Positions 61,666-62,877 of a DNA stretch of 64,000 nt are shown piece by piece; the stretch's first letter is position 1, and every line of letters starts with the position of its first letter. The stretch lies in the IMG/VR virus record IMGVR_UViG_3300010413_000016, positions 1 to 64,000 of that record; one strand, given 5' to 3'. A model generated the notes under the pieces. That model searched no databases. It was not told the DNA's origin and saw only the letters and a program-made list of their open reading frames with translations. The translations under genes were made by a program, and so were the position numbers. The DNA is from a virus.

Positions 61666-61965
61666 TCAGTGGTGGAAATCATCATCAAAGAACGCGAACA
61701 GATACACCCCTTCTTCCTCGAGATTGTCAGAGTTAAATGCTAATCCCTTTTTGTGGTCACCTTTGTACTCAACGACAAAGTCTCCCAGCTCTGGATAGTC
61801 AACTTTGGGATGCCCAGCTTCTTGCATCAGTTCTACCAATTTGGCTGTGTCTCGTTCACTGATGCATGCATCGCCTGTGGACAAACTGAATGCATCGATA
61901 TCAATTACTTGAGTAACGATATCGAACATCTGTTGTGCCCACTCATTCAGAATCATGCCAGACAT
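61666..61965 (-). CDS. Early hypothetical acidic protein
   Basis: Promoter and RBS. Confidence 0.65.
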   Translation of the reverse strand: MSGMILNEWAQQMFDIVTQVIDIDAFSLSTGDACISERDTAKLVELMQEAGHPKVDYPELGDFVVEYKGDHKKGLAFNSDNLEEEGVYLFAFFDDDFHH

Positions 61966-62055
61966 CTCATATCTCCTTCCTCAACTGATGATGCTACTAT
62001 CCCACATCATCACAAGAAGATCAACAACATCCCACTACCATCCCACTTTCGTGGA

Positions 62056-62203
62056 ACAAAAAAAGAGGCCGACATGTGCCAGCCTCGAAAAGGAGGACGC
62101 TTGTGGTCCTCAGGGGGAAGAAGTGGTCGGCGGCCAAGAGAGAGGAGAGAGGGCGGCCGCCAACCGGGTAAACTTTCAAGCTACATCGTTCTCCTCAACC
62201 GAT
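62056..62203 (-). ncRNA. Candidate sRNA with start-stop ORF and anti-SD hairpin
   Basis: Promoter TTGCAT-17-TATAGT (62210-62238); GAGGAG RBS; ATG-TAG; three hairpins, the last with a U7 tract. Confidence 0.7.
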
Positions 62204-62227
62204 GACTCTACTATACTTTATTCCGTG

Positions 62228-62506
62228 TTAGGATGCAACAGGCTCCACCATGAAAGTTGTCAGCCAGTCGCATACATCTTCGTGGGTGAGCAGCTCAATA
62301 CCTTCCTCACCATCGCGAACGTACCAACTACATTCGTGGGCACATAGAGTGCTTGTTCCAACAATGTCAGTTACACTAAACTCGTTGGCTACCTCGATGA
62401 ACTGAGGAATCGTCAGTGATGAGCCATCTGAGTCGTTGTAGGCAATATCGCCATCAAGAGTATACTTGTGTCCATTGCCGAGTGTCGCTGCTCCATAAAT
62501 GTGCAT
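62228..62506 (-). CDS. Early hypothetical acidic protein
   Basis: Start MHIYG after cassette RBS. Confidence 0.65.
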   Translation of the reverse strand: MHIYGAATLGNGHKYTLDGDIAYNDSDGSSLTIPQFIEVANEFSVTDIVGTSTLCAHECSWYVRDGEEGIELLTHEDVCDWLTTFMVEPVAS

Positions 62507-62565
62507 TTGCTTTCTCCTCTCAATTGATGGGGCCATTATAGCCCCATCCTGAGTTGAAGTCAACG

Positions 62566-62877
62566 TTACATTGACCAATAGGTCTCTGAAGCAGGAGAGC
62601 ATGAGTTAGGAGTGTTGATCGGTTCCTGATACTCTTTGCCGCTCATCAGGTTGGTGCGAGTAACCATCTTCTCGATGTTCTCAGCAAAGTCACGACTGTC
62701 AGCAATCGCGTAGTCGTCCTTCGTAGCACCATCGTGGAGCTTACCTTTGTTGTCAAGACGAGTCAGCGCCGCTTTGGCTGCACGCTCAGTCTTGTAGCTC
62801 TCAACCCAACATCCCCACGACTTGCTCGGCGCTTTGAGGATCAGGGTGGTTTCTTTGTGATAGATTACGTAGCTCAT
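62566..62877 (-). CDS. Early phage protein
   Basis: YKTERAAKAALTR...NLMSGKE...PASETYWSM. Confidence 0.7.
   Translation of the reverse strand: MSYVIYHKETTLILKAPSKSWGCWVESYKTERAAKAALTRLDNKGKLHDGATKDDYAIADSRDFAENIEKMVTRTNLMSGKEYQEPINTPNSCSPASETYWSM

Follow-up and report, generated by a model that had tools for sequence, protein, structure and literature searches.

The stretch from position 62238 to 62058 on the minus strand of the analysed phage DNA has the promoter-like site, ribosome-binding site and start codon of an early gene cassette, yet the start codon is followed at once by a stop codon, and the place of the gene is taken by a pyrimidine-rich, structured RNA with an intrinsic terminator. 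It is well supported that this element is a non-coding module of a cassette plus a structured RNA. We give about even credence to the more specific reading that an orphan cassette is joined here to a 3′-end anti-Shine-Dalgarno (anti-SD) riboregulator/terminator module of an early transcription unit, and regard an autonomous small RNA (sRNA) with a functional start-stop site as possible but unsupported. The parts on which the original prediction had been built (promoter, GAGGAG motif, ATG-TAG, hairpins, pyrimidine linkers and U7 terminator) were all recovered in the sequence and in the folds, each in its predicted place.

The analysed window covers positions 1 to 64,000 of an IMG/VR virus record of 74,769 bp that is estimated to be 23% complete; the genome is probably very large. 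The 74.8-kb fragment encodes the lysis-inhibition proteins rIIA and rIIB, a helicase and tail-fibre-like proteins. Its closest cultured relatives by rIIA are Vibrio phages and coliphages of the T4 type, and because the identity to these amounts to only ≈26–32%, the source appears from its sequence to be a distant, T4-like phage. Between ≈55.7 and 72 kb, the minus strand is occupied by small ORFans for which PHROG or other homologues were not found. With rIIA and rIIB in the fragment and a dense run of promoter cassettes in front of ORFans, this early region has the features of a hyperplastic region in a T4-like genome. Its intergenic gaps typically measure 50–75 nt and have room for just one cassette, whereas the gap that holds the element extends over 262 nt.

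The promoter cassette and its start-stop site

About 25 minus-strand early genes are each preceded by a near-identical cassette of the PeSL type with the consensus GTTGACT, 17 nt, TATAAT, 11 nt, TTGAGAGGAG, 6–8 nt and ATG. The −10 sequence sits within a short stem-loop in many copies. Between 55.7 and 64 kb of the minus strand, many cassette promoters place the −10 hexamer in a 3-nt loop that is closed by a 10-bp stem (examples are 62548-62526, 59902-59880 and 58653-58631), as in the PeSL subclass whose stem-loop covers the −10.

In the element, a promoter-like site is formed by TTGCAT (62238-62233), a 17-nt spacer and TATAGT (62215-62210) on the minus strand, and its −35 hexamer overlaps the final codons of the upstream gene 62506-62228. 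The Shine-Dalgarno sequence (SD) TTGAGGAG (62198-62191), which contains GAGGAG at 62196-62191, follows 11 nt past the −10 as in the other cassettes, and the same variant is the SD of real genes at the genome positions 70328, 67199 and 64255. We scored the genome with a position weight matrix (PWM) derived from 18 of its other cassettes. The stretch from promoter to ATG ranked 30th of ≈149,000 positions, ≈5 standard deviations above the mean, and the promoter portion by itself ranked 70th of ≈149,000. Because of this rank, we take the element to be a diverged member of the cassette family and not a chance look-alike; the spacing from the −10 over 11 nt and TTGAG..GGAG to the ATG is that of the family. 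The predicted architecture of a normal gene cassette is thus borne out by the PWM rank.

The promoter is nevertheless placed by the PWM among the weaker cassette copies. It matches 8 of the 12 consensus bases, compared with 11 of 12 in its neighbours, and its −35 shares just TTG with the consensus; with 3 of 6 bases matched there, the promoter falls below the threshold of a consensus scan. An inverted repeat around the −10, present in the neighbouring copies at 62548-62526, 59902-59880 and 58653-58631, was not found in the element. The weakened promoter and the absence of the −10 stem-loop fit plain decay equally well.

The ATG (62186-62184) and the directly adjoining TAG (62183-62181) lie 4 nt past the SD on the minus strand, in the order GAGGAG-AACG-ATG-TAG. 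SD and ATG thus stand at the spacing of the PeSL family, but the reading frame behind them is a single codon. With an SD upstream and a start codon directly before a stop, the site has the sequence make-up of a bacterial start-stop. TAG is a genuine stop codon in this phage: among 64 confident genes, 12 end with it, namely 5 out of 32 in the early region and 7 out of 32 large ones on the plus strand. Since 10 of 394 ATGs in the region (2.5%) directly precede a stop, the combination of an SD with ATG-stop is by itself weak evidence and not significant. The early region holds 34 strong SD+ATG sites, ≈29 of which start real genes. Only two are located in intergenic gaps, those at 62186 and 65718, and both are start-stops, a coincidence that is suggestive only, because the count is two and was made post hoc. 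The second site, at genome position 65718 beyond the window and likewise on the minus strand, reads AGGAGGUGA, 6 nt, ATG-TAA, and its SD has the strongest predicted pairing with the 16S rRNA tail among the sites scored (−16.1 kcal/mol).

The surroundings of this second site are of a different kind. At ≈65733-65713 on the minus strand, AGGAGGTGA, 6 nt and ATG-TAA are found in a 355-nt gap that shows no cassette context; a CA-rich stretch follows, and then a 13-bp hairpin (65643-65615) with the arms AGAGAGGG and CCCUCUCU. The first 50 kb of phage RB49 contain a single strong-SD ATG-stop, an ATG-TAA inside the gp38 gene. A 5′ mini-hairpin around the SD of the element (−2 kcal/mol, z +0.98) was not significant in comparison to shuffled sequences. 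We had considered that the SD might be displayed in the loop of a 5′ hairpin and form a kissing interaction with the anti-SD loop, and rejected this arrangement, as the 5′ stem folds no better than shuffled sequence.

The structured RNA and searches for relatives

Downstream of the start-stop, a hairpin with a 12-bp G+C stem and a 17-nt all-pyrimidine loop is formed by positions 62165-62125 of the minus strand (−23.3 kcal/mol, z −5.8); none of 200 shuffled sequences folded as well. Its stem includes two G-U pairs, which are possible only on the minus-strand transcript, and the hairpin is therefore a fold of the minus-strand RNA. Within this loop lies CUCCUCUC, which is exactly complementary to the cassette SD GAGAGGAG. 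Two sister hairpins of this kind exist on the same strand. The one at 60602-60565 (−23.6 kcal/mol, z −7.0) has a 12-bp stem with the loop UCCUCUCUCAUUUU, is followed by U7 and thus constitutes a U7 terminator in itself; the other, at 57239-57194 (−24.2 kcal/mol, z −4.6), has a 12-bp stem and a 22-nt loop that begins with ACUCCUCUCUCUC.

The three hairpins have unrelated stems, and each of them follows a gene, within a long gap that is non-coding. All three minus-strand copies of CTCCTCTC in the early gene block (≈55.7–72 kb) are located in the loops of these 12-bp G+C stems, and the 8-mer CUCCUCUC has no other occurrence on this strand within the block. Two more minus-strand occurrences at 72.1–72.4 kb, outside the block, are SDs of plus-strand genes. 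No start codon follows any of the three loops on the plus strand, hence none of them is an SD of the opposite strand, a check that mattered because a motif scan of IMG/VR (see below) returned exactly such false positives. Strong large-loop hairpins, defined by a stem of 10 bp or more that includes 6 or more G-C pairs and by a loop of 10 nt or more, number only six in the entire 74.8 kb, and the three anti-SD hairpins among them have loops consisting of 91–100% pyrimidines. Each anti-SD hairpin is adjoined by a small hairpin on the minus strand (57185-57165, 60625-60603 and 62111-62093), with the SD-like 5′ arms GGAGGC, GAGGGC and GAGGAC, respectively, and anti-SD-like 3′ arms. These small hairpins could be alternative partners of the loops or a product of a GA/CT-rich sequence pool.

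As an SD, GAGAGGAG is confined to genes with promoter cassettes, mostly in the minus-strand early block, and the loop matches ≈14 different early genes. Duplexes of the loop with the initiation regions of GAGAGGAG cassettes are predicted at −16 to −24 kcal/mol, compared with −4.4 kcal/mol for random windows of the early region and −5.9 kcal/mol for the large plus-strand genes; the 16S tail reaches a predicted ≈−9 kcal/mol on the same sites. For the gene 62506 directly upstream, whose SD is GAGAGGAG and complementary to the loop sequence CUCCUCUC, the predicted duplex amounts to −17.2 kcal/mol. The SD of the element itself is predicted to pair with the loop over ≈7 nt at −12.5 kcal/mol, weaker than the SDs of other cassettes, and with the 16S tail at −9.4 kcal/mol. 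A consistent target in cis is not apparent for the three loops; the gene just upstream of hairpin 57239 matches poorly (−6.0 kcal/mol).

The anti-SD hairpin is followed by an unpaired C/U-rich linker, ACUUCUUCCCCCU (62124-62112), and by the small hairpin at 62111-62093 (−8.6 kcal/mol, z −2.7), in which the SD-like 5′ arm GAGGAC pairs with GUCCUC; the latter runs into CCUCCUU, which we take to match the 16S rRNA tail motif. An intrinsic terminator with a 9-bp stem (62086-62065), a 4-nt loop and U7 (62064-62058) closes the element (−16 kcal/mol, z −4.65) and was also picked up by a terminator scan. The fold of the whole 166-nt stretch has a z value of −2.1. Folding thus bears out a strong structure of the downstream RNA, with a terminator at its end. 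Its composition is unusual as well: the transcript 62180-62058 contains 11% A and 37% C, compared with 30% A and 21% C in the early region, G amounts to 21%, and loops and linkers are YC-rich.

A related early region was not found in GenBank phages, IMG/VR, the JGI metagenomes or two protein collections. In detail, blastn of positions 61900-62700 against GenBank phages gave no match, an exact-pattern scan of IMG/VR for the hairpin returned nothing, and two scans of JGI metagenomes revealed no relatives. A scan of IMG/VR for the cassette architecture yielded 10 contigs, all from other phage groups; those contigs with similar cassettes that were tested had neither rIIA nor anti-SD hairpins. Protein-based searches for the locus with both flanking genes, rIIA and an early PHROG_1106 gene found nothing or one fragment of 35% identity, and the helicase led to two fragments of 66% identity, both without early cassettes. 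The flanking proteins matched only themselves among 5.8 billion proteins; the 92-aa upstream protein is also encoded on a 1,429-bp Logan contig. No Rfam family, including c4, matched the window at gathering score, and a search of the 351-nt stretch 61950-62300 at E values up to 10 produced chance-level matches only (E ≥ 1.7).

The scan of IMG/VR for the loop motif resulted in 90 hits, of which the recurrent ones are no true anti-SD hairpins and were rejected: in five contigs, the motif proved to be an ordinary SD for a gene on the other strand, and three contigs shared a G+C hairpin that is unrelated. Two side observations were made on other contigs. An unrelated phage group in IMG/VR (L004 at ≈7533, L008 at ≈11066) uses cassettes of the form AACTTGAC...TATAAT...TTGAGAGGAG, and two of its promoters lead into GAGAGAGGAAAGGAAA and a G+C-rich stretch. 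A start codon is absent from the ≈85 nt displayed, and these two promoters may therefore drive non-coding RNAs. Another phage, represented by the three contigs L100 (13380-13440), L102 and L103, has in identical form a G+C hairpin of 9 bp whose 29-nt loop includes CCUCCUCUCUCAUUUU; it sits between a terminator-like hairpin and the downstream gene, and SDs matching this loop were absent from the flanks examined.

Proposed mechanism and alternative explanations

On the minus strand, the element comes after the ORFan 62506-62228, which has 92 codons and a strong cassette promoter of its own at 62563-62535. Neither a terminator scan nor a hairpin search found a terminator-like site between promoter 62563 and the element, and the RNA of the element is therefore expected as the 3′UTR of gene 62506-62228. 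The downstream gene 61965-61666 has its own promoter, TTGATC-17-GATAGT (61996-62024, minus strand, PWM score 23.8), which is placed past the terminator of the element. It belongs to a second class of promoters, in which the −10 reads GATAAT, GATAGT or GATACT and often follows AAAGTGGGA. Sites of this class were observed at 62050-61996, 57624-57596 and 60547-60438 of the window and at genome position 65588, with tandem arrangements in front of gene 61965 and of two paralogues, 60400 and 56910, and a decayed copy, ACGAAAGTGGGATGGTAGT, is located immediately 3′ of the U7 terminator of the element.

We propose that a PeSL-type cassette, complete with promoter, 5′UTR, SD and ATG and devoid of a gene, has been fused to a pyrimidine-rich RNA with a terminator. 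The RNA would be made at least as the 3′UTR of the upstream gene, starting from promoter 62563 and ending at U7, and the weakened internal promoter may add a separate RNA of ≈145 nt that starts near 62203. The hairpin loop is presumably the active part, as it shows the complement of a long SD that is private to early cassettes. We assume that it pairs with early ribosome-binding sites, either in its own mRNA (in cis) or in others (in trans), and that this pairing lowers translation or exposes early mRNAs to decay. The start-stop is most likely a leftover initiation site of the cassette that is closed at once. The immediate stop would halt ribosomes before they unwind the anti-SD hairpin and the terminator, which lie 20–120 nt downstream, and any selective value of the stop would presumably be of this kind.

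The original prediction had envisaged a transcription unit of its own that yields an sRNA of ≈150 nt, and a start-stop that might stabilise this RNA, act as a sponge for initiation complexes or work as a switch together with the anti-SD loop. A structured RNA with a clear terminator is indeed present; the claimed independence is weakened by the promoter, with its 8 of 12 matched bases, and by the read-in from 62563. That an independent sRNA of ≈145 nt is made from TTGCAT-17-TATAGT and carries an active start-stop seems unlikely to us. In such an RNA, a ribosome at SD-AUG-UAG could shield the 5′ end from RNases, or it could compete with the anti-SD loop for the SD, so that the loop would be masked or exposed. 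The layout is complete from promoter to terminator, and a switch is favoured by the SD, which is predicted to pair more strongly with the loop (−12.5 kcal/mol) than with the 16S tail (−9.4 kcal/mol). Ribosomes do initiate at bacterial start-stops (10.1101/520783), the second start-stop of the region has the strongest SD scored (AGGAGGUGA, −16.1 kcal/mol), and ribosomes that initiate at a strong SD stabilise the hbs mRNA of B. subtilis (PMC5737220). On the other hand, the promoter is among the weaker copies of its family, with 3 of 6 bases matched in the −35, and the strong upstream promoter would yield the same RNA anyway as a 3′UTR. A 5′ hairpin that displays the SD does not reach significance, the predicted pairing of the loop is stronger with the SDs of other cassettes than with that of the element, and no relatives that could demonstrate conservation came up in the searches.

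The same degree of doubt attaches to an explanation by decay, in which the element is a degenerate or recombination-scarred cassette with transcription termination as its only function, and in which ATG-TAG and the match of loop and SD are by-products of a sequence pool rich in GA and CT tracts. The degenerate −35 and −10 and the missing −10 stem-loop are what such a history would leave behind, and recombination is known to shuffle PeSL regions (PMC2839356). A stop follows 2.5% of the regional ATGs anyway, a chance ATG-TAA with a strong SD exists inside the gp38 gene of RB49, and the searches found no relatives that would show retention. Decay does not readily account for an 8-mer whose only copies on that strand of the block are carried by three separate 12-bp G+C stems, for stems that need G-U pairs on the transcribed strand, or for an A-poor composition that is extreme in a phage of 40% G+C. 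It is also confronted with the fact that both intergenic strong SD+ATG sites are closed immediately.

A further reading combines start-stop and loop into a ribosome-gated riboregulator of ≈14 early cassettes, for which we see a slim chance. The free RNA would mask its loop by pairing with the SD of the element, and a ribosome on the zero-length reading frame would release the loop onto the private SD of the early cassettes. The phage could in this way sense free initiation capacity and shut down its own early translation with RNA alone, which would represent an RNA counterpart of the early shut-off by RegB and RegA in T4.

It is very unlikely, in our view, that the RNA serves as a platform for proteins, either as a Rho loading (rut) site before the terminator or as a decoy for ribosomal protein S1. 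The excess of C over G (37% vs 21%) and the YC-rich loops and linkers would suit such a role; in addition, T4 RegB uses S1 for the cleavage of early-mRNA SDs with GGAG and A-rich sequence (PMC1702504), and the cassette SDs of the present phage consist of GGAG followed by A-rich sequence. Most pyrimidines are, however, located in or beside very stable hairpins, which are poor substrates for Rho, an intrinsic terminator is already there, and a protein platform has no need of an exact 8-mer complementarity. RegB or RegA homologues are absent from the 74.8-kb fragment, which amounts to 23% of the genome.

There is no credible ORF in the element. Past the start-stop, two of the three frames are free of stop codons over more than 50 codons: a 52-codon frame from a TTG at 62179, 11 nt past the SD, and a 57-codon frame that includes readthrough of the TAG. 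These long open frames result from the A-poor composition (11% vs 30%). Both of them run through the three hairpins and reach a stop codon only past the U7 tract, so that terminated RNAs would lack this codon. No homologue of the TTG frame turned up among 5.8 billion proteins, and the in-frame readthrough peptide found a single, low-complexity match among 1.84 billion representatives. Their codon scores (−0.003 for the TTG frame and −0.117) are below the gene mean of 0.239 ± 0.148, yet within the range of real genes (minimum −0.171). The prediction that ATG-TAG is the only ORF led by a ribosome-binding site is in agreement with these results. Plus-strand ORFs at 61753-62205 and 61955-62347 were set aside, as they overlap well-supported minus-strand genes. 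A small protein, made from the TTG at 62179 or by readthrough of the TAG, could thus draw on the two open frames, the position of the TTG 11 nt past the SD and its codon score within the range of real genes, but is extremely improbable given frames that owe their length to scarce A, run through three hairpins and past the terminator and lack a real homologue, and given that TAG is a normal stop here.

Relation to known systems

The element combines known kinds of sequence, namely PeSL cassettes, start-stop sites and anti-SD regulators of the 3′UTR or sRNA type. PeSLs are described as mobile modules of promoter, stem-loop and SD in the hyperplastic regions of T4-type phages (PMC2839356, PMC4122927). 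With the PeSLs of RB49 and phi1, the element shares the setting of a T4-like phage and of a hyperplastic region in which a strong sigma70-like promoter, often with a stem-loop over its −10, leads through an SD and start codon into each ORFan, and it keeps the layout of promoter, UTR, SD and ATG (PMC2839356, PMC4122927). It differs from these PeSLs by the weakened −35, the absent −10 stem-loop, the lack of an ORF and the structured non-coding RNA behind; an empty PeSL with ATG-stop does not appear in the sections consulted (PMC2839356, PMC4122927).

Start-stops have been found in E. coli by ribosome profiling with retapamulin, where an immediate stop disturbs the main ORF less than a longer out-of-frame ORF and one suggested function is to contain the harm done by initiation at an unwanted site (10.1101/520783). 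The E. coli sites are located within genes and out of frame, whereas the phage site is intergenic or part of a 3′UTR, belongs to a promoter cassette and is known by its sequence. In S. aureus icaR, an anti-SD motif in the 3′UTR pairs with the SD in the 5′UTR (PMC3868564). The phage RNA resembles icaR in that a C/U-rich anti-SD motif past the coding region is complementary to an SD of the same mRNA (predicted −17.2 kcal/mol). It differs in host, motif and phage context, in the presentation of the motif in the loop of a 12-bp hairpin and in the ≈14 early genes that are matched.

The c4 RNA of phages P1 and P7, CyaR and RsaE/RoxS are base-pairing RNAs with C-rich anti-SD loops. Like the present RNA, they end in an intrinsic terminator and have loops and linkers that are unpaired, rich in C and U and complementary to ribosome-binding sites; the present RNA differs from them by the lack of an Rfam match and by its putative targets, which are the early cassettes of the phage itself. 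Lambda bar minigenes (SD followed by AUG AUA UAA) have two sense codons and act via peptidyl-tRNA drop-off. They are likewise borne by a phage, led by an SD and extremely short in their reading frame. Their drop-off mechanism is inapplicable here because a one-codon frame yields only fMet.

Phages of the T4 type turn off their early genes after a few minutes. T4 uses proteins for this purpose: RegB cuts GGAG ribosome-binding sites and RegA represses translation. The predicted pairing of loop and SD remains an observation on a single genome. A long SD that is private to the early genes, together with gap hairpins that show its exact complement, points to an early shut-off by RNA only. The empty cassette would then show how an anti-SD RNA is mounted on the mobile promoter modules of the phage, and it represents a natural case for the question whether a reading frame of zero length is a harmless closure or a working landing pad for ribosomes.
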